Source: Candidatus Pacearchaeota archaeon (GTDB lineage Archaea; Nanobdellota; Nanobdellia; Pacearchaeales; GW2011-AR1). From it: a stretch of 64,000 nucleotides of DNA. How positions within the stretch are numbered: position 1 is the stretch's first letter; each line of letters opens with the position of its first letter. The notes below the pieces were generated by a model, which was not told the origin of the DNA, searched no databases, and saw only the letters and a list, made by a program, of their open reading frames with translations. Made by a program: the position numbers and the translations under genes. The stretch is from positions 434,159 through 498,158 of the forward strand of contig JAVZCO010000001.1 in the NCBI GenBank assembly GCA_038874355.1, given 5' to 3'. This document shows, in pieces, positions 2,564 through 54,885 of the stretch.

Positions 2564-3742
2564 CTATCTTGTTAAAATTTCTATAGCATCTTTATGTCTT
2601 AAAATATAATCTTTTCCTATTACTTTTTTAGTTTTTACATCTATTGCTTTAATGAAATTATTTCCCAAATCGGTATGTAATCTAAAAGCAAAATCTAACG
2701 CTGTACTGTTAGGGGGCATTAAATAACAATCAGGCAAGACTCTACCTTGACTATCTGTAAGTTTAGATGTTCCTGCTGGAAATACTGCTACATATTTTAA
2801 TAAATCAAAAACAACATAATTTAAAATATTTTGAACTCCAGTAGAACCGTATTTTTCTAATATTTTTTTTATTTTTTCTAGAGCAATTTTTTGATTTTCA
2901 TTTAAATTTTTTAAAATTTTAAAATTATTTTCTCCAGGTATATATTCTATTAATCCAGCTTTTGAAGCTTCTCTCAAAGCTAATTCTGCATCAGTAGAAC
3001 AAGGTATTATAGGATAATTAAATTCTTCTCTTATTTTCTTTAAATTTTCTTCAGCTCCTTCTAAATCTATCTTATTTCCAGCAATAATCATTGGTTTAGT
3101 TTCTTTTCTTAAATTACTTGCAAAATAAAAAATTTCTTCTTCTGTCCATTGTGTAGGCTTTTCAATATCCAATTTTAATTTTAATACAATTTTATTAACA
3201 TCCTCTTCCTTTACTTTTAATCCAGAAAACTGTTTTGTTATTGCTTGTATAAAATTTTCTTTTGTTGATTCTATTTGCTTAGAAAAAGTTTTCCAAACCT
3301 TTTTTAATATATTAGAATACCATAAATCAATTTCTTTCTCTAAAAATTTTATATCTTCTCCGGGATAATAATTATTTGTTGGTTTACCTTCGGCATTTGT
3401 CTTTCCAGATAAATCAACTATGTGTATAAAAGCATCTGCTTGTCTTAAATCATCTAAAAATTGATTACCCAAACCCTTTCCTTCTGAAGCTCCAGGTACT
3501 AACCCAGCAACATCTAAGAGTTCAATAGGAACAAATCTTTTACTATTAATACAATATCCTTCTCTCGGATTACATTTGACATTAAAATCTTTATCAATGC
3601 AATCTATTTTTACATAACCAATTCCATGATTCGGTTTTATTGTAACAAAGGGATAATTTGCTATTAAAACATTTGCTAATGTTGCTGCTTTAAAAAAAGT
3701 GCTTTTTCCTACATTTGGTTTTCCAATTATTCCTATTAACAT
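2564..3742 (-). CDS. ychF: Obg-family GTPase, YchF/OLA1-like, with C-terminal TGS-like domain
   Basis: N-terminal G1 MLIGIIGKPNVGKSTFFKAAT followed by NYPFVTIKPNHG (YchF signature); NKID G4 motif AGNKIDL; 392 aa. Confidence 0.7.
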   Translation of the reverse strand: MLIGIIGKPNVGKSTFFKAATLANVLIANYPFVTIKPNHGIGYVKIDCIDKDFNVKCNPREGYCINSKRFVPIELLDVAGLVPGASEGKGLGNQFLDDLRQADAFIHIVDLSGKTNAEGKPTNNYYPGEDIKFLEKEIDLWYSNILKKVWKTFSKQIESTKENFIQAITKQFSGLKVKEEDVNKIVLKLKLDIEKPTQWTEEEIFYFASNLRKETKPMIIAGNKIDLEGAEENLKKIREEFNYPIIPCSTDAELALREASKAGLIEYIPGENNFKILKNLNENQKIALEKIKKILEKYGSTGVQNILNYVVFDLLKYVAVFPAGTSKLTDSQGRVLPDCYLMPPNSTALDFAFRLHTDLGNNFIKAIDVKTKKVIGKDYILRHKDAIEILTR

Positions 3743-3806
3743 ATTCTAATTAAAAGGGTAATATATAAAAACTTTTATAAATCAATATTTTTTAAAAATA
3801 TTAATA

Positions 3807-3928
3807 GAGCCCGTAGCTCAGCCCGGTTAGAGCACCGCTCTTATATGAAGAAGATTCAATAGAATCTTCATTTCCAGGCTAAATGCTAGGAAAGGCGGGG
3901 GTCCTCGGTTCAAATCCGAGCGGGCTCA
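3807..3928 (+). tRNA. tRNA-Ile with anticodon UAU and a 49-nt intron at the canonical 37/38 position; no encoded CCA
   Basis: Acceptor gagcccg/cgggctc pairs perfectly (7 bp). D arm gctc-agcccggtta-gagc. Anticodon stem ccgct/ggcgg with loop c-t-TAT-a. Intron tgaagaagattcaatagaatcttcatttcc... contains the hairpin gaagattc/gaatcttc. T arm ctcgg-ttcaaat-ccgag, discriminator A. Confidence 0.7.
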
Positions 3929-3949
3929 TATAAAATTTATCTTGTTAAT

Positions 3950-4636
3950 ATGAAGTTAAAAAAATTAATATATAGTGGATTATTTTTGTTTTTTTTGCAA
4001 TTAAATTTATACGCAGAACCACAACACATAGTAAGAGGACCAAAAGATAAGAAACAAATAGCATTAACTTTTGATGATGGAGATAATTTAGAAAGTGTGA
4101 TAAAAGTACTTGAAGAAAAAAATGTTAAAGCAACATTTTTCTTAACAGGAAATTATATTATGAAAAGAAAAGAAGAAGTAAAAAGAGCATATGAAAAAGG
4201 CCATGAAATAGAAAATCATACTTATACTCATCCTAATTGTACTAATATATCATTAGATTCTTTGATTAATGAAGTAGTAATAACAGATTCTGAAATTTAT
4301 AATATAACTGGTTATATTCCAAGATTTTTTAGATTTCCATACGGAAAGGCAAATAATGAAAAATTAGAAACAATAGAAAAATTAGGAAAAAAATCTATTT
4401 TTTGGACAATAGATACAAGAGATTGGGAATATAAAAAAGAGGAATACAAAAAAGCAAGAGAAAATATTATAAAAATGATTAATGAACAAACTAATAATGA
4501 AAAAGGGAGTGGTAGTATAATTTTAATGCATACAAAAACAATAGTGGGATCCTATAAGATTCTTCCAGAAATAATTGATCTTTTAAAATCAAAAGGATAC
4601 GAATTAGTTACAATAAATGAAATGTTTGAAAAATAA
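3950..4636 (+). CDS. secreted polysaccharide deacetylase (NodB/CE4 family)
   Basis: Signal-peptide-like N-terminus. Motifs IALTFDDGD, HTYTHP and IILMH match the CE4 catalytic motifs. Confidence 0.75.
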   Translation: MKLKKLIYSGLFLFFLQLNLYAEPQHIVRGPKDKKQIALTFDDGDNLESVIKVLEEKNVKATFFLTGNYIMKRKEEVKRAYEKGHEIENHTYTHPNCTNISLDSLINEVVITDSEIYNITGYIPRFFRFPYGKANNEKLETIEKLGKKSIFWTIDTRDWEYKKEEYKKARENIIKMINEQTNNEKGSGSIILMHTKTIVGSYKILPEIIDLLKSKGYELVTINEMFEK

Positions 4637-9735: not shown

Positions 9736-11370
9736 ATGAAAAAAATATTTATTTTTTCTTTATTTAGTATCTTCACAATTAGTTTAGTTTTTGCTTCTTC
9801 TTATTACTATTATACTACAAATTGGTATTATCAAGGAAATCCAGTTAATAATGTTAGAGCAATGAATTTTAAATGTTTAGATAACGGTTGTTATAATTTA
9901 GGTGAAAAAACGTTTGATTTTACTTCACAGAGTAATAGTATAACTATTCCTTATTCTATTCCATCTCCACAATACGGCTATGCTAGTTATTGGTTCTCTT
10001 CTTGTTATATTTATCAAGAAATGGCTTGGAAACCCAATTCTATCGGGAGTTATTTACAAAATGTTAATTTCACAAAAAAAGAAAATTGTAATTCTTCTAT
10101 AGAAGAATTAATTTTTCCAGGTCTTATAAATAAGAGTCAAAATGTTAATATAACAGCAATAATAAAATCCGCTTTTTTTAATTTACCTGAAGCACCTTAT
10201 GCAGTTCCTTCTGATAAAGATCTTATAAAAGATTTTTTTTCTTCTGAAGTGAATATAACATTAGAAATAAAAAATTCTACAAAAAATATTGTTCATACTA
10301 GTTCAAAAGTAGATTATATTTATATGGATTCTTTAAAAGATATAGAATTTTATTGGATTCCGGATAAAGAAGGAATTTATAATATAACAATAAAAACAGA
10401 AGTTATTGATTGCAAATGTTCTTCTAATATAATAAATAAAAAATCGAAAATAATAATAGTTAATTTTACAGATCAATTTCCAATAAATGATACAAACCCT
10501 CCACAAATTACAATAATCTCACCAGCAAACATAACATATAACACAAACACAATTAACTTCAATATAACAGCAGATGAAAATTTAGATACTTGTATATATA
10601 CTTTAGATGAATGGCAAACAAATATAACCATGACAAAATTAAATGACACATACTTCTATAACATAACTCAATTAAACGACGGAAGCTACACAGCAAGGTT
10701 CTGGTGTAATGATACAGCTAGCAATGTAAATAATACAGAACAAGTTAGTTTTGTTGTTAATACTACAATAGAAGAAAATGACACAACAGAACCAATAATC
10801 TTTTTAATTTCTCCATCAAATAACTCTCAATTTTATGAAGGAAATATTAATTTCACTTATAAAGTAACAGATTTAAGCAATATATCTTATTGTAAATTTT
10901 ATTTAAATAACATAAGTGAATATACAGACAACTCTATTATAAAAGAAATTAATTTAACTATAACAAAAAATTTAACAAAAGGAAATTATTCTTGGTATAT
11001 AGAATGTGTAGATTCTTACAATAATGTTGGAGTAAGTGAAACAAGAACAATACATATTTTAGAAAAACAAAACAATACAGAAGAAACAGAAAAAAACAAG
11101 ACGAAAAAAAATGAAAGAGAAAAAAAAGAAATTTTAAAATTTGTTAAAGAAGAAGAAATATGCGGAAATTATATATGTGAATATTGGTTAGGAGAAAATG
11201 AATATAATTGTGAGAAAGACTGTTTAGAAAATATAAAACTTAATTATGAAAAAGAAAAAGTAACATTAAGCAAAAAAGAAACCAAAAATAATCTTATTTC
11301 ATTAATAATTTTTTTAATTTTATCAATTTTTATTCTTTTAATTATTATTTATCTTATTTTAAAAAAATAA
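9736..11370 (+). CDS. secreted cell-surface protein rich in N-glycosylation sequons, with C-terminal TM anchor
   Basis: Signal peptide; dozens of N-x-S/T sequons; Cys-rich pre-anchor region; C-terminal hydrophobic helix followed by KK. Confidence 0.5.
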   Translation: MKKIFIFSLFSIFTISLVFASSYYYYTTNWYYQGNPVNNVRAMNFKCLDNGCYNLGEKTFDFTSQSNSITIPYSIPSPQYGYASYWFSSCYIYQEMAWKPNSIGSYLQNVNFTKKENCNSSIEELIFPGLINKSQNVNITAIIKSAFFNLPEAPYAVPSDKDLIKDFFSSEVNITLEIKNSTKNIVHTSSKVDYIYMDSLKDIEFYWIPDKEGIYNITIKTEVIDCKCSSNIINKKSKIIIVNFTDQFPINDTNPPQITIISPANITYNTNTINFNITADENLDTCIYTLDEWQTNITMTKLNDTYFYNITQLNDGSYTARFWCNDTASNVNNTEQVSFVVNTTIEENDTTEPIIFLISPSNNSQFYEGNINFTYKVTDLSNISYCKFYLNNISEYTDNSIIKEINLTITKNLTKGNYSWYIECVDSYNNVGVSETRTIHILEKQNNTEETEKNKTKKNEREKKEILKFVKEEEICGNYICEYWLGENEYNCEKDCLENIKLNYEKEKVTLSKKETKNNLISLIIFLILSIFILLIIIYLILKK

Positions 11371-18326: not shown

Positions 18327-19511
18327 CTATTTTTTTAATCTTTCTATTAACCCTAAAGGCAAATCATACTTTTGGCCTAATTCTTTTTTAGAAACACTAG
18401 GCAAAATAATTTTTTTATTTTGTTCTATAGCTATCTTAATATATTCTTCATTTAATAGTTTTGGACTATCAAAGTATCCTGATTTTGTACCTTTTTTTAG
18501 TTGATTGAGGTAATTCTCTAAATTAAAGTATTCTCTGCAGTAATTTTGAAGATAATCTTTAAACTCTTTCTCACATTTTTTATATGTTTCTTCTATTCTT
18601 TTTATTTCTTCCTCAAATATGGGATTTAATAAATCTAAAAGCCCATCAGTTTGACTTTCTGATGCTCTAATTCTCGCTAAAACCTTTTTGGTTAAATATC
18701 TGATTTTGTTCCCTGGTCCTTTTGCTGAAGGAAAAATTCCTTGATTGGATGCTTCATTTAATGTTAGAATATGGTCTCCCACATATTGTGCATCCTCTTT
18801 CTGAAGATATGGGAAATTTGAAATTATTTTTTCAGTTATTTTTTTTAATTTTTCAATTTCAAAAACAGAATTATAACCATTGATTACTGCAACTAATCTT
18901 TCTAAGGCCATTCCAGAATCAACTAATTTTCTATTTTGAGGATCAATGTACGCTATATTCCACAACTCCCATTCTGTGGGAATATGTCCAATTTCCATTC
19001 GCTGCCCCTCTAAAGGGCCATCCTTAATCCTCCAAGACAATTTTGTTGGATCAAGTCTTCTAATTTCTATTCCTAACGAAGAATATCTTTTGGCATTTTC
19101 TGAAATCTCTTTTTTGTTATCTGGAACATTTAAAAAAATTTCATTAGGCGGAACCCCAGTCGTAATCAAATAGTCAATCATATAATCTGTGATCTTTGAA
19201 AAATTTGTATTGTTAAAAGAAAAAACTTCTAGCATCTTAAAGTTTGTTAAATGTCTAGGGGAATATCCAACTCTATAATCGTTATCCGTTCTTAGACAAT
19301 TTTGTATTCTTGCTAACTGTTGCATATTGGACTCTTCATTTCCCCTAAATACATTATCATATTTAATTCCCCCACAAATCATAAATAACACGGCCGCACT
19401 TTTATTTTCGGGGAGCAGGTTTTCTGATTTTTCAGTGCAAAAACCTAGTTTAGAAAAATAATCCAAGTATTCTACTTCTACTTCTTTTAATTCTTTAATT
19501 TTTTTATCCAT
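18327..19511 (-). CDS. standalone alanyl-tRNA synthetase catalytic-core paralog (class IIc aaRS N-terminal domain only, 394 aa)
   Basis: Aligns to the AlaRS N-terminus: YLDYFSKLGF (FLDFF.SKGH), SAAVLFMICGGIKYDNVF (LLFTNAGMNQFKDVF), IQNCLRTDNDYRVGYSPRHLTNFKMLEVFSF ([35 protein letters not shown]). Lacks the tRNA-recognition, editing and C-Ala domains. Confidence 0.7.
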   Translation of the reverse strand: MDKKIKELKEVEVEYLDYFSKLGFCTEKSENLLPENKSAAVLFMICGGIKYDNVFRGNEESNMQQLARIQNCLRTDNDYRVGYSPRHLTNFKMLEVFSFNNTNFSKITDYMIDYLITTGVPPNEIFLNVPDNKKEISENAKRYSSLGIEIRRLDPTKLSWRIKDGPLEGQRMEIGHIPTEWELWNIAYIDPQNRKLVDSGMALERLVAVINGYNSVFEIEKLKKITEKIISNFPYLQKEDAQYVGDHILTLNEASNQGIFPSAKGPGNKIRYLTKKVLARIRASESQTDGLLDLLNPIFEEEIKRIEETYKKCEKEFKDYLQNYCREYFNLENYLNQLKKGTKSGYFDSPKLLNEEYIKIAIEQNKKIILPSVSKKELGQKYDLPLGLIERLKK

Positions 19512-48438: not shown

Positions 48439-49680
48439 TTATAATATCTTTATACTTTTTATCCCAATTTCTTTCATAAATTTTTTTTTACTATTTATTA
48501 TTTTTTTTAAATCCATATCAATTTTCTCTTCAGCGTAAATTACGCCTTTTCTTATAAAAGTTTTTTTATGCTTCTTCTTAAATGCAATAACATTCATTGT
48601 TTTATTAATCGGTGGACCTTTTATTAACAATTTATCTTTCTTTTTTAATACAAAATAGCAAACAGCGGATTTTTTATTGTCATAAAAAAAATCTTTATCT
48701 TTTATTTTATAATATTTTTTTAAACAATTATTAAGAAATTGGTAAAATTTTAATAATTTGCTTCCAGCTATAGACCCTTCTTGAAAAGAAGTTTTAATTA
48801 AAATTTTAATTGCTTTCTTTTTTTCTAAATTATTTATTCTTTTTTTTATCATTTTTTCGTATGAAAAAAAGTCTTTTGAAGGATTATCCAAAAAATTTTT
48901 GCAATATTTTTGAAATTTTTTAAAAGTTTCTTTAGATAAAGCAGATGTTACATTTCTTTCTTTAAAAGTAGGATCTATTAATATTATGGGAGATTGGATT
49001 TTTGACTCATTAATCTCATTAAGAATTTCTTTTTTATTAGAATAAAATTTTTCTATATCTATTATTATTTTTTTATCCGAACTTGCTATGTTTTTTATAA
49101 AATTTTTAAAGGTTTTATAATAGATTATTAATAACTCTATAGCATACCCGGAAAAACCTTTAATATGAGATTCTGCTCCATAATAACCAGAAGCAAATAC
49201 AAACTTTTTAGCTAATTTTATCTCCTCTGCTAATTTTTTATTTTTTTTAATTTTGTTTTTTACATAAGAAACATGAAAATAACTAAGATCTGTTGTATTT
49301 TTCGCATTTTTTGGGGAAGACAATTTTATTGTAGGAACAATTTCAAAAATTATATCATCATAATAAAAATTATAATAATCTCTACTACCATGAATTTTTT
49401 GGCATTTAAATTTTGTTTTCTTTTTTATATTTTTTATTATTTTATTAAATTTATTTTTTATTTCTCTTTCGTTTTTAAATCTTAAAAAAATATCTATATC
49501 ATATTTTTCTTTTTTTATTATTGTATCTTTTGCTATACTTCCTCCTACAAAAAAATCTATCTTATGTTTTTTTAATATTTTTATAAATAATGATAATTTT
49601 TCATTTATCTCTTTTTGTTTTTCTTTTTCTAATAAAATTTCTTTTTTTATCTCTTTTAGTATAGGTTTCAAATTTTTCAT
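48439..49680 (-). CDS. cca: class-I (archaeal-type) tRNA CCA-adding nucleotidyltransferase, putative
   Basis: N-terminal pol-beta NTase motif FFVGGSIAKDTIIKKEKYDIDIF (GS...DxD). Its 413 aa length fits the archaeal CCA enzyme. It matches the absence of encoded CCA on all three tRNAs in the window. Confidence 0.5.
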   Translation of the reverse strand: MKNLKPILKEIKKEILLEKEKQKEINEKLSLFIKILKKHKIDFFVGGSIAKDTIIKKEKYDIDIFLRFKNEREIKNKFNKIIKNIKKKTKFKCQKIHGSRDYYNFYYDDIIFEIVPTIKLSSPKNAKNTTDLSYFHVSYVKNKIKKNKKLAEEIKLAKKFVFASGYYGAESHIKGFSGYAIELLIIYYKTFKNFIKNIASSDKKIIIDIEKFYSNKKEILNEINESKIQSPIILIDPTFKERNVTSALSKETFKKFQKYCKNFLDNPSKDFFSYEKMIKKRINNLEKKKAIKILIKTSFQEGSIAGSKLLKFYQFLNNCLKKYYKIKDKDFFYDNKKSAVCYFVLKKKDKLLIKGPPINKTMNVIAFKKKHKKTFIRKGVIYAEEKIDMDLKKIINSKKKFMKEIGIKSIKIL

Positions 49681-49698: not shown

Positions 49699-50121
49699 TT
49701 ATAAATAGATAAAAATTATTTTTTTAACTTGTTTTTTTGCTTTTATATTCGCTTGATTTAAATTAGATAAATCTATAATATATTTACCTTCTTCTATTTT
49801 ATATATAATTGGTAAGTTCTTCTTTAATATTTTTGTCAAATCTAATTCAAATTTCCCCTTTTTTATAACTCTTATGGATTCTATTTCTAAAATAACTGGT
49901 TCTTCTTCTTTTATCCCGATAATATCTCTTATATCTTTTTCTATATTCTCTCTTTCTTTTTCATTTATTTGTTGAAAGGGCAATTTTTTTTCTTCTTCTA
50001 ATTTTCTAAAATATTCATCTTTGATATAAAAGAAAAAATGACTTTTACATTTAGAACAACCTTCTAGTAATTCTTTACTTCCATCAGGATATAAAGTTCC
50101 GCAATGAACACATTGATGCAT
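49699..50121 (-). CDS. Zn-ribbon protein
   Basis: N-terminus CVHCG...CSKC forms a four-Cys ribbon; 140 aa. Confidence 0.35.
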   Translation of the reverse strand: MHQCVHCGTLYPDGSKELLEGCSKCKSHFFFYIKDEYFRKLEEEKKLPFQQINEKERENIEKDIRDIIGIKEEEPVILEIESIRVIKKGKFELDLTKILKKNLPIIYKIEEGKYIIDLSNLNQANIKAKKQVKKIIFIYL

Positions 50122-50187
50122 AAATATATGTTAGAAATAAGTATATAAAAACTTATTGTAAAAGAAATTTATTATTTTATATAATTT

Positions 50188-50577
50188 TTATTTTCTTAAC
50201 ATTAACTCGACTTTACTAGGATCTTTTTTAATTTGTTTAACAATTGTAGCAGGCCCTATAATTGTTAAACCTTCCCTTCCTTTAGATATAACATTTGCTA
50301 AGTTACTTCTTAATCTATCAAAAAATCCTTTATTTTCGTTTGTTGGTGTTAATACAGCTAATTCCACACCTTTAAATCCCTTTATTCTTCCAGCTAAAGC
50401 CATAGTACTTTGAATTAAAGATGATTCTTCTATAGGAGAAAGTCTTCCTTGCAAAATAACAATTTTGTTTTCTAAGATTAAATCAAGAATTTTTTTTATT
50501 CTTTCCTGACTTGGCAATCTTTCTAATTCACTATAAGTGATAAATCTTATTGTTAGTCCAGCAATTTTCGCTGCCAT
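50188..50577 (-). CDS. small conserved-looking partner protein of the adjacent GTPase (possible Roadblock/DUF2073-like)
   Basis: 129 aa, co-oriented with and 36 nt from the GTPase gene. No firm motif; the assignment rests on gene context only. Confidence 0.3.
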   Translation of the reverse strand: MAAKIAGLTIRFITYSELERLPSQERIKKILDLILENKIVILQGRLSPIEESSLIQSTMALAGRIKGFKGVELAVLTPTNENKGFFDRLRSNLANVISKGREGLTIIGPATIVKQIKKDPSKVELMLRK

Positions 50578-51328: not shown

Positions 51329-54094
51329 TTATGTTTTATTTTGAATATTTTTTTGTTTTATTGCTCTTTTTGAAAAAATCTTAGATATGTCTAAAGGTAT
51401 TATGCTTTTCCCTTGATATTTATTTATTACATAAGAAATTTGTTCACTTGACCAGCCCGTTTTACTTAACTGTTGTTTTATTGTATTATATGTCATTCCT
51501 TGATGTATAGCATTATTAATATATAGTAATAGATTATAAATATCATTTCTATTTTTAAATAATTTGGATTCGTAATGAATTCTATACCACTGAGATATTA
51601 AGATATAAGAAATAAAAGCACAAATCAATATAAAAGACCATAATATCCATGCAATAGTCCATGGTTTACAATCACTTCTACAATTTTTCCAATTCTCCTC
51701 TTTTTCCTTTTCACAAATTTTGTTATAATTACACTTTTCTAATAGAAAATCTATTTCAATTTCTTCTAAAGTTGGAGATATATATAAATTAAGATCTTTA
51801 TATTTAATTTCACCAAAGTAAAAGAAGGTTATTTCTCTTTCTTTTATATCATCAAAAATTATAGAAAAAGAATTGTTTAATTGTTTTGTATTATTATAAG
51901 AAGAGTATAAATCAAAATTTACTCCTTTAATAGCATCTGGAAAAATTAAATAATTTTTTATTTCTCTTGAAATTTCTTCTTTTGGGGATATTTTTAATCG
52001 AAATATTCCTAAAATTTGTTCTATTGAATTATCATAATATGCATAAAGATATTCTCCTTGCATATACATAATAATATTATCCTGCTGCCAGCCGGCAATT
52101 GCTTTTTTATATTCTTCTTCTCTTTCTTCAGAATAATTTCCTAAATCTTCTAATTCTTCTAAATCATTTAAATTTATTCTTTCGTAATTTACATAATAAG
52201 GAAGATTTTCTTTTAGTGTTATATTTATCTTATAGGGAATTTTTAAACTTAATAATTTTACTGCAATTTCTTCATATTTTTTTTCGTCTCCTCCTGCAGC
52301 ATTATAATCTATTTGAATTTCATCTAATTGTCTTGTTATATTATCAATATTTAAAACTTTCTTTATATATGGTTGATACTGCGAAGGAAAAGAACTTATC
52401 TGTAAAGTTAAGTTTTGCAATCTTTTTTTGTAAATATCTATTGTTGAATTTATTTTTTCTTTTGGAATAGAAATATTTATATTAAAATCCTTTTCGCTCA
52501 TTAAACCTTCAGAATCTATAACAGAAACCTTTATTTTAAAATTTGAAGAAGAAACATTCATGAAGGTATATTCTATACTATTATTAGTTGTTTCTATACT
52601 TTTATTTGGATCAAAATTCCAGATATATTTAACTATGCTTTTATTGTTTAGTGCTTGTGCTTGAACATAAAATTTTGTTGGATATGCTAAAAATGCTTTT
52701 TTTGGATATAAGTCTTTTATTATAGGAAAAGATAAAATTTTAATTGTTTCATTAAAAATTTTTTTATTTCCTATGTAAATTTCTATTGTGTGGTTTCCAT
52801 ATTGAGATGGTAATGAAAAATTTGCTTCATCTAGATTTAAAATAGTGTAATTAAAAGATATTTTAGATTTTTCTATATTTGTTTCGTAAATTTTATTTGT
52901 TGAAGAATAACCGCCTAATTCATTATATTCAATTGAAATATTAGATATTTTTATATTTATAGGAACATTTGCTTTGAAATTTATTGGAATTACACAACCA
53001 TCCTTATTTTCAATACAAGAAGAATCATAATATTCTTGAATGTAATTCATTATATAATCTTTTAAGTAAGAGTCTTCTACTTTTATTTTACCTATATTAT
53101 CAAAAACATAAGATTCTGCAAAGATAGAATAATCATAAGAAAAATCTTCTGGAATTTGTTCAGGATTCCCATAAAAACCACATTTTTCTCCAGATGATTC
53201 TCTTTTAATTTTATAGTCGCCTAAAGAATTTGTTTTTTTTATACAGATAAAATAAAAATCTTCATTATAATTCATGTCTTCATTTTTTAAAGAAATGTTA
53301 CAAAAATATTCTCCCTCTTTTATATTTTTTGTAAAATCTAAAGTACATCTTCCTAGTTCTTCTCCATCTAAATTAAAAATGGACATTCTTATGTTATTTT
53401 CATACTTTGAATTGTTAATAATATATGCACCTAAGTTATAATATTTTGATGGTTTTAATTTTATTCTTTCACAATAATAATTATCTTGAGATAAAGAAAC
53501 TAAAGTCGAAGAAGATAGATTACTAAAACAACCATAATTTTTACTATCAGAACAGATTATAGAAGAAGAAAATTTGTCCGATCTCCATTCTATTTCTTTA
53601 TCATATAATAAATCTATTTCTAGAGGATTTTCACATGAATACTGGTTTGTTACTTCCATATCAAAACTAAATTTTGATATAGAGCTTATTTTATCCCCAA
53701 CTAATTTAAAAGCAAGTGTATAACTTTCCCCTTTTTGAAGAGTAATGCTTTTTTCTTCCAAATCTATATTAGAAGTTTTATAATAAGGGATACAATTATA
53801 AGAATTACAAAAAAAATCTTCACCATAATTTAAAGAATTTAATAATATTAAATCAAATAAATTAATAGAACCGTTAATTTTAGAATTTCCTTTGATTAAT
53901 AAATCATAATATTCGTCTTTAACAGATATATTTATCCATCCTTGTAAATTTTCTCCAGGTTTGTATTCTTTTTTTATGTCATAAGAGAGATTACCTAAAT
54001 GTATATAAGCATTTGCTAAAAAAAAGTTATAAAAAAAATTATAAAATAATATTATTAAAAATAAAAAAAATATAAATAATCTCTTTTTCCCCAT
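51329..54094 (-). CDS. large secreted Cys-rich, N-glycosylation-rich surface protein with C-terminal TM anchor
   Basis: 921 aa, signal peptide, many N-x-S/T sequons, C-terminal WTIAWILWSFILICAFISYILI helix. Confidence 0.45.
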   Translation of the reverse strand: MGKKRLFIFFLFLIILFYNFFYNFFLANAYIHLGNLSYDIKKEYKPGENLQGWINISVKDEYYDLLIKGNSKINGSINLFDLILLNSLNYGEDFFCNSYNCIPYYKTSNIDLEEKSITLQKGESYTLAFKLVGDKISSISKFSFDMEVTNQYSCENPLEIDLLYDKEIEWRSDKFSSSIICSDSKNYGCFSNLSSSTLVSLSQDNYYCERIKLKPSKYYNLGAYIINNSKYENNIRMSIFNLDGEELGRCTLDFTKNIKEGEYFCNISLKNEDMNYNEDFYFICIKKTNSLGDYKIKRESSGEKCGFYGNPEQIPEDFSYDYSIFAESYVFDNIGKIKVEDSYLKDYIMNYIQEYYDSSCIENKDGCVIPINFKANVPINIKISNISIEYNELGGYSSTNKIYETNIEKSKISFNYTILNLDEANFSLPSQYGNHTIEIYIGNKKIFNETIKILSFPIIKDLYPKKAFLAYPTKFYVQAQALNNKSIVKYIWNFDPNKSIETTNNSIEYTFMNVSSSNFKIKVSVIDSEGLMSEKDFNINISIPKEKINSTIDIYKKRLQNLTLQISSFPSQYQPYIKKVLNIDNITRQLDEIQIDYNAAGGDEKKYEEIAVKLLSLKIPYKINITLKENLPYYVNYERINLNDLEELEDLGNYSEEREEEYKKAIAGWQQDNIIMYMQGEYLYAYYDNSIEQILGIFRLKISPKEEISREIKNYLIFPDAIKGVNFDLYSSYNNTKQLNNSFSIIFDDIKEREITFFYFGEIKYKDLNLYISPTLEEIEIDFLLEKCNYNKICEKEKEENWKNCRSDCKPWTIAWILWSFILICAFISYILISQWYRIHYESKLFKNRNDIYNLLLYINNAIHQGMTYNTIKQQLSKTGWSSEQISYVINKYQGKSIIPLDISKIFSKRAIKQKNIQNKT

Positions 54095-54300: not shown

Positions 54301-54885
54301 ATGGTTCCAACAAAAGTTTTTTTTACCAAAGGAGTTGGAAGGCATAGAGAAAGATTAGCAAGTTTTGAAGCAGCATTAAGAGATGCTGGAATTGAAAAAT
54401 GTAATTTAGTATATGTTTCTAGTATCTTTCCTCCTAATTGTAAAATAATAAGCAAAGAAGAAGGGATAAAACAATTAAAACCAGGAGCAATAACATATTG
54501 TGTAATGGCAAGAATGGAATGTAATGAAGCAAACAGATTAATAGCAGCAAGTATAGGATGTGCCATACCGGCAGATAAATCAACTTATGGTTATTTATCT
54601 GAACATCACTCTTTTGGAGAAACAGATGAAAAAGCAGGAGAATATGCAGAAGATTTAGCAGCAGAGATGTTAGCAACTACTTTAGGAGTAGAATTTGATC
54701 CAAATAAAAGTTATGATGAATTAAGAGAGATATGGAAAATATCAGACAAAATCGTTAAAACAACAAATATAACTCAATCTGCTATTGGAAAAGCAGGTAT
54801 TTGGACAACTGTTATTGCAGCAGCTGTTTTTGTTCCTGAAGATAATGAAACTTTAGGTTTTAATAATAGTACAAAAAAAGAATAA
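54301..54885 (+). CDS. pdaD: pyruvoyl-dependent arginine decarboxylase
   Basis: [45 protein letters not shown] closely matches the PdaD N-terminus, including the self-cleavage Ser region. Confidence 0.85.

Follow-up and report, generated by a model that had tools for sequence, protein, structure and literature searches.

Reading of the isoleucine codon AUA by a transfer RNA (tRNA) with a genomically encoded UAU anticodon is already known in archaea, and the closest described case is the tRNA-Ile(UAU) of the archaeal Richmond Mine acidophilic nanoorganisms (ARMAN). ARMAN-1, -2, -4, and -5 (Micrarchaeota/Parvarchaeota; Fujishima et al. 2011) carry a tRNA-Ile(UAU) gene with an intron at position 37/38 and lack both tiaS and tRNA-Ile(CAU), and their tRNA has been proposed to replace the system of TiaS and tRNA-Ile(CAU) (PMC3239211). 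Described here is a complete pre-tRNA-Ile(UAU) gene from a Candidatus Pacearchaeota archaeon, located on the forward strand at positions 3807 to 3928 of a 64,000-nt stretch of contig JAVZCO010000001.1 (assembly GCA_038874355.1, positions 434,159 to 498,158); this whole stretch is called the window, and coordinates refer to it. The gene resembles its ARMAN counterparts in belonging to a DPANN archaeon, in its genomic UAU, and in a 37/38 intron with a bulge-helix-bulge (BHB) motif (PMC3239211), such that the modest new information lies in the spread of this trait across DPANN.

The two cases also differ. The ARMAN-2 intron is 25 nt long and has a strict hBHBh' motif, whereas the window gene has a 47-nt intron, a 1-bp inner helix, and a competing helix; absence of tiaS was shown for ARMAN, whereas for the window gene it extends to the 64-kb window only. 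Among other archaea, the "tRNA-Ile3" of Nanoarchaeum equitans and of Korarchaeum cryptofilum is a UAU tRNA found in genomes without tRNA-Ile2(CAU) (PMC8450103, PMC6000648, PMC3575796), and the K. cryptofilum gene is likewise intron-bearing (PMC6000648). NCBI taxonomy places Pacearchaeota together with N. equitans in kingdom Nanobdellati, i.e., DPANN, whereas Korarchaeum is not a DPANN archaeon; likeness to both is at the level of the anticodon and, for K. cryptofilum, of the presence of an intron.

In eukaryotes, the intron of tRNA-Ile(UAU) is required for pseudouridine modification of U34. The eukaryotic gene also combines a genomic UAU with a 37/38 intron, which pairs with the anticodon, and following conversion of U34 to pseudouridine the tRNA reads AUA but not AUG (PMC3895270, PMC3575796). 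This system belongs to another domain and employs the heterotetrameric Sen endonuclease, and the likeness of the Pacearchaeote gene to it, as considered here, is one of anticodon and intron. In bacteria (Mycoplasma mobile, Bifidobacterium, Neorickettsia, and, in the genome scan described below, many members of the candidate phyla radiation [CPR]/Patescibacteria), a tRNA-Ile(UAU) replaces the lysidine-modified CAU tRNA, and that of M. mobile has an unmodified U34 together with N6-threonylcarbamoyladenosine at position 37 (t6A37) (PMC3575796). The bacterial tRNAs differ in having no intron, a bacterial-type body and isoleucyl-tRNA synthetase (IleRS), and loss of TilS rather than TiaS.

Results

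Structure of the gene

The interval 3807 to 3928 is very probably a functional gene for the AUA-reading tRNA-Ile(UAU) of its Candidatus Pacearchaeota (DPANN) host. Its parts are as follows.

3807..3928, forward strand: complete pre-tRNA-Ile(UAU) gene; 122-nt precursor, 75-nt mature tRNA
3807..3845, forward strand: 5' exon, tRNA positions 1–37, from sequence and Rfam alignment
3842..3844, forward strand: anticodon T-A-T, positions 34–36, fixed by Rfam alignment and BHB geometry
3846..3892, forward strand: 47-nt intron (length also from ARAGORN -i) at the canonical 37/38 position, supported by Rfam, folding, and the gene family
3893..3928, forward strand: 3' exon, positions 38–73, from sequence and Rfam alignment; no CCA
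3773..3781, forward strand: TATA-box-like element TTTTATAAA, ∼30 nt upstream of where the mature tRNA begins, of presumed promoter function

The Rfam tRNA model RF00005 (class I) matched 3807 to 3928 on the forward strand over its full length (1–71) with 54.4 bits, above the curated gathering score of 29 (E = 6e-9 in a scan of the 64-kb window), with a single large insert immediately after CUUAUA; the 48 inserted bases in this alignment correspond to the 47-nt intron plus A38. Direct reading of the sequence gave a 7-bp acceptor stem (GAGCCCG/CGGGCUC), a D stem (GCUC/GAGC) with G18 and G19 in the D loop, a 5-bp anticodon stem (CCGCU/GGCGG) whose final pair is a U31·G39 wobble, a 5-nt variable loop (GGGUC), a T arm (CUCGG-UUCAAAU-CCGAG), and A73 as discriminator. 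The fold proposed in a first-pass annotation of this DNA (7-bp acceptor, 5-bp anticodon stem, canonical T arm) was thus recovered both by Rfam and by reading of the sequence, and its call of an archaeal tRNA gene that is interrupted by an intron and itself encodes UAU agrees with Rfam and with BHB geometry; its placement of the intron after position 37 also stands, whereas its intron length of 49 nt is corrected to 47 nt by coordinates 3846 to 3892. G+C content amounts to 64% in the gene, as compared to 24.2% in the window.

TATA-like hexamers are positionally clustered among 82 family members, starting at −35 to −29, and A+T content in the same set reaches a maximum of 0.82 to 0.89 over −31 to −25, as compared to ∼0.72 elsewhere. 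CCA is not encoded in the window gene, where the bases following are TAT, nor in any of the family members checked. Since the tRNA gene lacks an encoded CCA, a gene for an archaeal CCA-adding enzyme in the window is considered an accessory part.

48439..49680, reverse strand: archaeal CCA-adding enzyme gene (Pfam tRNA_NucTransf2, E = 7e-34)

Conservation among relatives

Relatives were collected in two scans. The first, a sequence-pattern scan of one genome per GTDB species, returned at least 120 loci (L001–L120) with UAU and an Ile-like D arm, most of them bacterial and ∼25 labelled as archaea, including Woese-, Pace-, Aenigmat-, Iain-, Micr-, and Nanohaloarchaeota; this archaeal share is a count of loci listed and not a fraction of DPANN species. 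Within the same list, 19 archaeal-labelled loci (20 with the window gene) have an intron directly after A37 and four are intronless, two of the latter looking bacterial and probably representing mislabelled bins. The second scan was more specific and addressed metagenome contigs. Together the scans yielded 84 distinct intron-bearing genes, with introns of 25 to 158 nt that always follow A37; those from named genomes belong to Woese-, Pace-, Iain-, and Nanohaloarchaeota.

Two loci labelled "archaeon," L076 (JBAZUY010000001.1) and L101 (NYZO01000062.1), hold intronless, bacterial-looking tRNA(UAU) genes (GGGCGGTTAGCTCAGCTGG... and GCGCGCGTAGCTCAGTTGG..., respectively), and their bins may be misclassified. 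CPR/Patescibacteria (Saccharibacteria, Parcubacteria, and others) account for 55 of the at least 120 genome loci, and Planctomycetes and Chloroflexota are also present. Bacterial loci in this list resolve as intronless in 80 of 97 cases, or 80 of the 81 that resolve. CPR bacteria may carry a genomic UAU as often as DPANN archaea do.

The stems of the gene are maintained by compensatory substitution, and the arrangement as a whole is retained, with abundant changes of this kind, in the 84 distinct relatives. RNAalifold, applied to an alignment of 36 relatives with 44- to 50-nt introns, returned a consensus with the cloverleaf, three of the four central pairs of the splicing motif, a 3-nt 3' bulge, and an intron hairpin. 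Of the cells in this alignment, 97% are paired, and both sides have changed at 20 of 32 pairs; the observed value was not reached in any of 500 shuffles, and sliding of the pairing partners lowered pairing to at most 45%. Across orders, covariation is seen in acceptor, anticodon, and T stems. Among 80 relatives, the central helix retains all four pairs in 70 and three of four in the other 10. The U31·G39 wobble (3839 and 3894; columns 34 and 96 of alignment A1) is invariant in 36 of 36 aligned relatives, unlike the other variable stem pairs, which covary freely, and may have a role in tuning decoding or splicing.

These data bear on whether 3807 to 3928 is instead a tRNA pseudogene that has decayed or is not expressed, or resembles a tRNA by chance. 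A default ARAGORN run on the window misses the gene, and the minimum-free-energy (MFE) fold of the precursor hides the 3' splice site, as might be expected of a nonfunctional copy. However, the match to the full Rfam model with every stem intact, conservation of the gene in different orders, its acceptor, anticodon, and T stems being preserved by compensatory change, a promoter-like element at a conserved position, and a G+C-rich gene within a 24% G+C window make decay or chance very improbable.

A gene for tRNA-Glu(UUC) lies downstream on the same strand, 2 nt to ∼2.4 kb away, in 52 of 83 loci (L020, L026, L031, L034, L046, L054, and others). This synteny does not extend to the window, in which a polysaccharide deacetylase gene follows tRNA-Ile(UAU).

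Placement of the intron and identity of the anticodon

In a BHB motif, two 3-nt bulges flank a 4-bp helix, and cleavage occurs after the second bulge nucleotide. The corresponding elements of the window gene are listed below.

3840..3843, forward strand: anticodon-side strand of the central 4-bp helix, C32 U33 U34 A35, pairing with UAGG at 3887–3890
3844..3846, forward strand: 5' splice-site bulge, U36 A37 / U+1, with predicted cleavage after A37 (3845)
3885..3893, forward strand: 3' splice region GCUAGGAA followed by A38, holding the 3' strand of the helix (3887–3890) and the bulge A-A-A38 (3891–3893)

Loop positions 32 to 35 (CUUA) pair with intron positions −6 to −3 (UAGG) as C-G, U·G, U-A, and A-U, and the 3-nt 3' bulge adjoins the anticodon stem, with the intron at 37/38. 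A strict motif, in which an inner helix h' with a minimum of 2 bp closes the 3-nt 5' bulge, was not found at this locus, as G3847-C3886 alone can pair. The inner helix ranges from 0 to 8 bp across the family. The splicing motif of the window gene is a relaxed hBH type, not a strict hBHBh' type; of the BHB geometry to which the first-pass annotation had pointed, the central helix and 3' bulge are present and the strict inner helix is not.

Removal of the intron leaves a 7-nt loop that reads C32 U33 U34 A35 U36 A37 followed by A38, with UAU at positions 34 to 36. Placement of the intron at 36/37 instead of 37/38 yields an identical mature loop, CUUAUAA. Because BHB geometry puts the intron at 37/38 and the 36/37 placement gives the same loop, the anticodon was assigned as UAU.

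Several observations weigh against assignment of the locus as a spliced tRNA-Ile(UAU) gene. The search pattern demanded CTTATA, such that an unvarying anticodon among the relatives is in part built in. Past the 5' bulge, the inner helix of the window gene consists of one G-C pair. The MFE fold is 6.3 kcal/mol better than a fold with the splicing motif enforced; because this preferred fold hides the 3' splice site, splicing would require rearrangement or assistance from an enzyme. Finally, ARAGORN run with the -i option labels the gene tRNA-Ser(UGA).

The ARAGORN -i model has the same coordinates, 3807 to 3928, with the 47-nt intron placed after U34 (CTCTT / intron / GAAAG). The same option labelled 24 of 83 related loci Ser(UGA) as well, along with 55 as Ile(UAU) and one as tRNA-Glu(CUC). 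Serine tRNAs belong to class II and have a long extra arm, whereas the variable loop here is only 5 nt (GGGUC). The 3' cut required for Ser(UGA) would fall inside the central helix rather than in a bulge, and one and the same tRNA body would then bear UGU, UGC, or UGG in orthologues whose intron position −2 is T, C, or G. The Rfam alignment, for its part, sets the insert after CUUAUA. Division of one gene family into 55 Ile(UAU) and 24 Ser(UGA) genes also speaks against the serine model: because the same family receives both labels, the label depends on the ARAGORN intron heuristic. The Ser(UGA) label was rejected as an artefact of intron placement on the grounds of variable loop, bulge geometry, and consistency among orthologues, and a serine tRNA at this locus is considered extremely improbable. 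An alternative intron placement that changes the anticodon, named in the first-pass annotation as a refuting case, was thus encountered in the ARAGORN -i output and dismissed, and UAU stands.

AUA codons in the host

In 63 window open reading frames (ORFs), ATA ranks third in codon usage, with a frequency of 65.4 per 1000 and a share of 55% of isoleucine codons, in agreement with the earlier description of ATA as very abundant. The meaning of this codon was examined in ychF, the divergently oriented neighbor of the tRNA gene (2564–3742, reverse strand), the product of which is 100% identical to MEM3405850.1 from a Candidatus Pacearchaeota metagenome-assembled genome. This identity independently confirms the DPANN placement at which the first-pass annotation had hinted. 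The 23 ATA codons of ychF align in homologues with I in 61%, V in 20%, L in 11%, and M in 1% of cells, a profile like that of ATT; ATG positions align with M in 67%. Because ychF ATA codons align with I, V, and L in the manner of ATT, AUA is taken to encode isoleucine in this host. Reassignment of AUA (e.g., to methionine), such that the tRNA would not be an isoleucine acceptor, was considered for an extremely AT-rich, reduced genome, with nothing specific in its favor; alignment of ychF ATA with methionine in 1% of cells, as compared to 67% for ATG, renders it hardly conceivable. The tRNA-Ile(UAU) is predicted to be charged with isoleucine by IleRS and to read AUA.

Search for an agmatidine pathway

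Neither tiaS nor tRNA-Ile2(CAU) was found in the 64-kb window, which covers ∼11% of the 575,629-bp contig. Among 40 window ORFs scanned with Pfam, and 10 (mostly the same ORFs) scanned with NCBIfam, there was no TiaS, no Elp3-like enzyme, and no splicing endonuclease gene. Archaeoglobus fulgidus TiaS was employed as a query; it is a 100% match to a database protein with Pfam PF22641 and PF08489, and its cluster includes AAB88990.1 and PDB 3AU7_A. The best 120 matches listed in a protein search with this query were all Archaeoglobi-like, a result that says nothing about DPANN. A tblastn search of the window and of 240 loci from the scans returned noise only, and the query had no match in ∼449 kb of related DPANN loci, too little sequence to be informative. 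Full-text literature searches found no paper linking TiaS or agmatidine to DPANN, Woesearchaeota, or Pacearchaeota.

The window does encode a pyruvoyl-dependent arginine decarboxylase.

54301..54885, forward strand: pyruvoyl-dependent arginine decarboxylase (221.6 bits versus an NCBIfam equivalog cut-off of 207)

The product of this enzyme is agmatine, the substrate of TiaS, and because the window encodes such an agmatine-making decarboxylase, the prediction of the first-pass annotation that TiaS is absent is not safe. The tRNA-Ile(UAU) could accordingly be functional and redundant, with tiaS and tRNA-Ile2(CAU) coexisting elsewhere in the genome, as the supply of agmatine by an enzyme above its equivalog cut-off and the small searched portion of the contig would allow. 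However, agmatine has further uses, e.g., in polyamine synthesis (PMC8007984), and the archaea described to date with a tRNA-Ile(UAU), namely N. equitans, K. cryptofilum, and ARMAN, lack tRNA-Ile2(CAU) or tiaS (PMC3575796, PMC8450103, PMC3239211). The lack of TiaS matches in the window and ∼449 kb of DPANN loci points the same way, if from too little sequence to inform. Redundancy is judged unlikely, although a chance worth reckoning with.

A helix that competes with the splicing motif

The intron of tRNA-Ile(UAU) is itself structured, with two elements in addition to its splice sites.

3850..3869, forward strand: intron hairpin 1, 8 bp with loop AAUA, formed by GAAGAUUC (3850–3857) and GAAUCUUC (3862–3869)
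3871..3879, forward strand: intron-internal "mimic" strand UUUCCAGGC, pairing with 3885–3893 in the MFE fold

The hairpin, already noted as 8 bp in the first-pass annotation, has changed on both sides at all eight of its pairs in the 36-gene alignment. Introns of Woese- and Pacearchaeota share a layout of U/A-G-A, then a hairpin of 4 to 11 bp (at least 5 bp in 70 of 72), then a 9-nt mimic strand, and most of the 72 relatives analysed have a hairpin apex of the form YUC-[tetraloop]-GAR, with GUUA the commonest tetraloop.

The mimic strand has its partner in the 3' splice region, and A38 and the two bulge nucleotides are among the bases paired. The mimic was located through invariant anchor positions only, and its pairing then measured at variable positions. 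Mimic position m1 pairs with intron −1 in 89% of cases as compared to 66% upon permutation (0 of 2000 permutations reaching the observed value; C:G 26, U:A 27), m2 with −2 in 87% as compared to 75% (1 of 2000; A:U 3, G:C 1, and C:G 1 included), and m8 with −8 in 76% as compared to 51% (0 of 2000), figures which overstate significance, in that related sequences are counted as independent, yet which include several types of compensatory change. Intron positions −4 and −5, the partners of U33 and U34 in the splicing motif, are unpaired in the mimic helix. The mimic helix and the BHB motif are mutually exclusive. In 61 of 80 family members, the MFE fold pairs both −1 and N38, and the median penalty for enforcement of the splicing motif is 3.4 kcal/mol in the family, with a value of 6.3 kcal/mol in the window gene. 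An Iainarchaeum relative has an ordinary strict motif, and the mimic is absent.

Euryarchaeal pre-tRNA-Trp carries a box C/D guide within an intron that is likewise conserved, structured, at 37/38, and selected beyond the needs of splicing. The Pacearchaeote intron differs in lacking CUGA and in matching no Rfam family of its own: at permissive E-values, Rfam returned tRNA only over 3760 to 3980, a SNORD62 score of 13 bits against a gathering score of 39 representing noise. A box C/D guide was rejected, as the intron has no CUGA D box and resembles a C box only with one mismatch (AUGAAGA versus RUGAUGA). H/ACA and K-turn readings of the intron were likewise rejected on sequence; a K-turn-type sheared G·A is ruled out by Watson-Crick pairing of G+2 with a conserved C at −7.

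We suggest tentatively, as a possibility less probable than its opposite, that the intron is not a passive insertion and serves either as a gate that delays splicing or as the fold of a stable excised (circular) intron with its own function. A delay in splicing might leave the anticodon of the precursor exposed for intron-dependent modification of U34 or U36, as in eukaryotic pre-tRNA-Ile(UAU).

Remaining genes of the window

An ORF of 394 amino acids (aa) at 18327–19511 (reverse strand) matches approximately the first 366 of 847 positions of an alanyl-tRNA synthetase model, well below cut-off, and may encode half of an alanyl-tRNA synthetase that is divided between two genes; N. equitans has such a split enzyme. 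Genes for OapC and OapB (origin-associated protein) at 49699–50577 (reverse strand) adjoin the CCA-adding enzyme gene, and a replication origin may be nearby. Two long ORFs, 51329–54094 (reverse strand, 921 aa) and 9736–11370 (forward strand, 544 aa), had no Pfam or NCBIfam match.

Discussion

Maturation of this tRNA can be outlined as a prediction from sequence and from better-known systems. Transcription would start from the TATA box ∼30 nt upstream and be followed by end processing. The archaeal splicing endonuclease would cut both bulges, after which RtcB would join the exons and the window-encoded enzyme would add CCA. A37 is expected to become t6A and U34 is probably modified; IleRS would then charge the mature tRNA, and AUA would be read without an agmatidine-modified CAU tRNA. 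The 1-bp inner helix makes the splicing motif relaxed, which in turn predicts a broad-specificity endonuclease of the (αβ)2 or ε2 type. The broad-specificity ε2 endonuclease of ARMAN-2 cleaves its own 37/38-intron pre-tRNA-Ile(UAU) in vitro (PMC3239211). The helix that competes with the splicing motif offers a starting point for tests of whether tRNA splicing is regulated or coupled to modification.

The gene family also presents an annotation hazard, in that default ARAGORN misses it and the -i option mislabels ∼30% of its members as tRNA-Ser. Complete-genome surveys list only Nanoarchaeum and Korarchaeum as archaea with a UAU tRNA-Ile (PMC6000648, 2018; PMC8450103, 2021), and because they still do so, the trait appears under-reported. 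The statement in the first-pass annotation that such a tRNA has been reported for only a few lineages, notably these two, is outdated in view of the 2011 ARMAN report (PMC3239211) and of UAU genes in many DPANN records.

The tRNA-Ile(UAU) gene shows how the codon used most often for isoleucine is decoded in a reduced archaeon of extreme AT content. With it, Pacearchaeota join the archaea with a genomic UAU anticodon, as do many further DPANN lineages according to the database scans; the trait may be a general DPANN feature that parallels the CPR bacteria.

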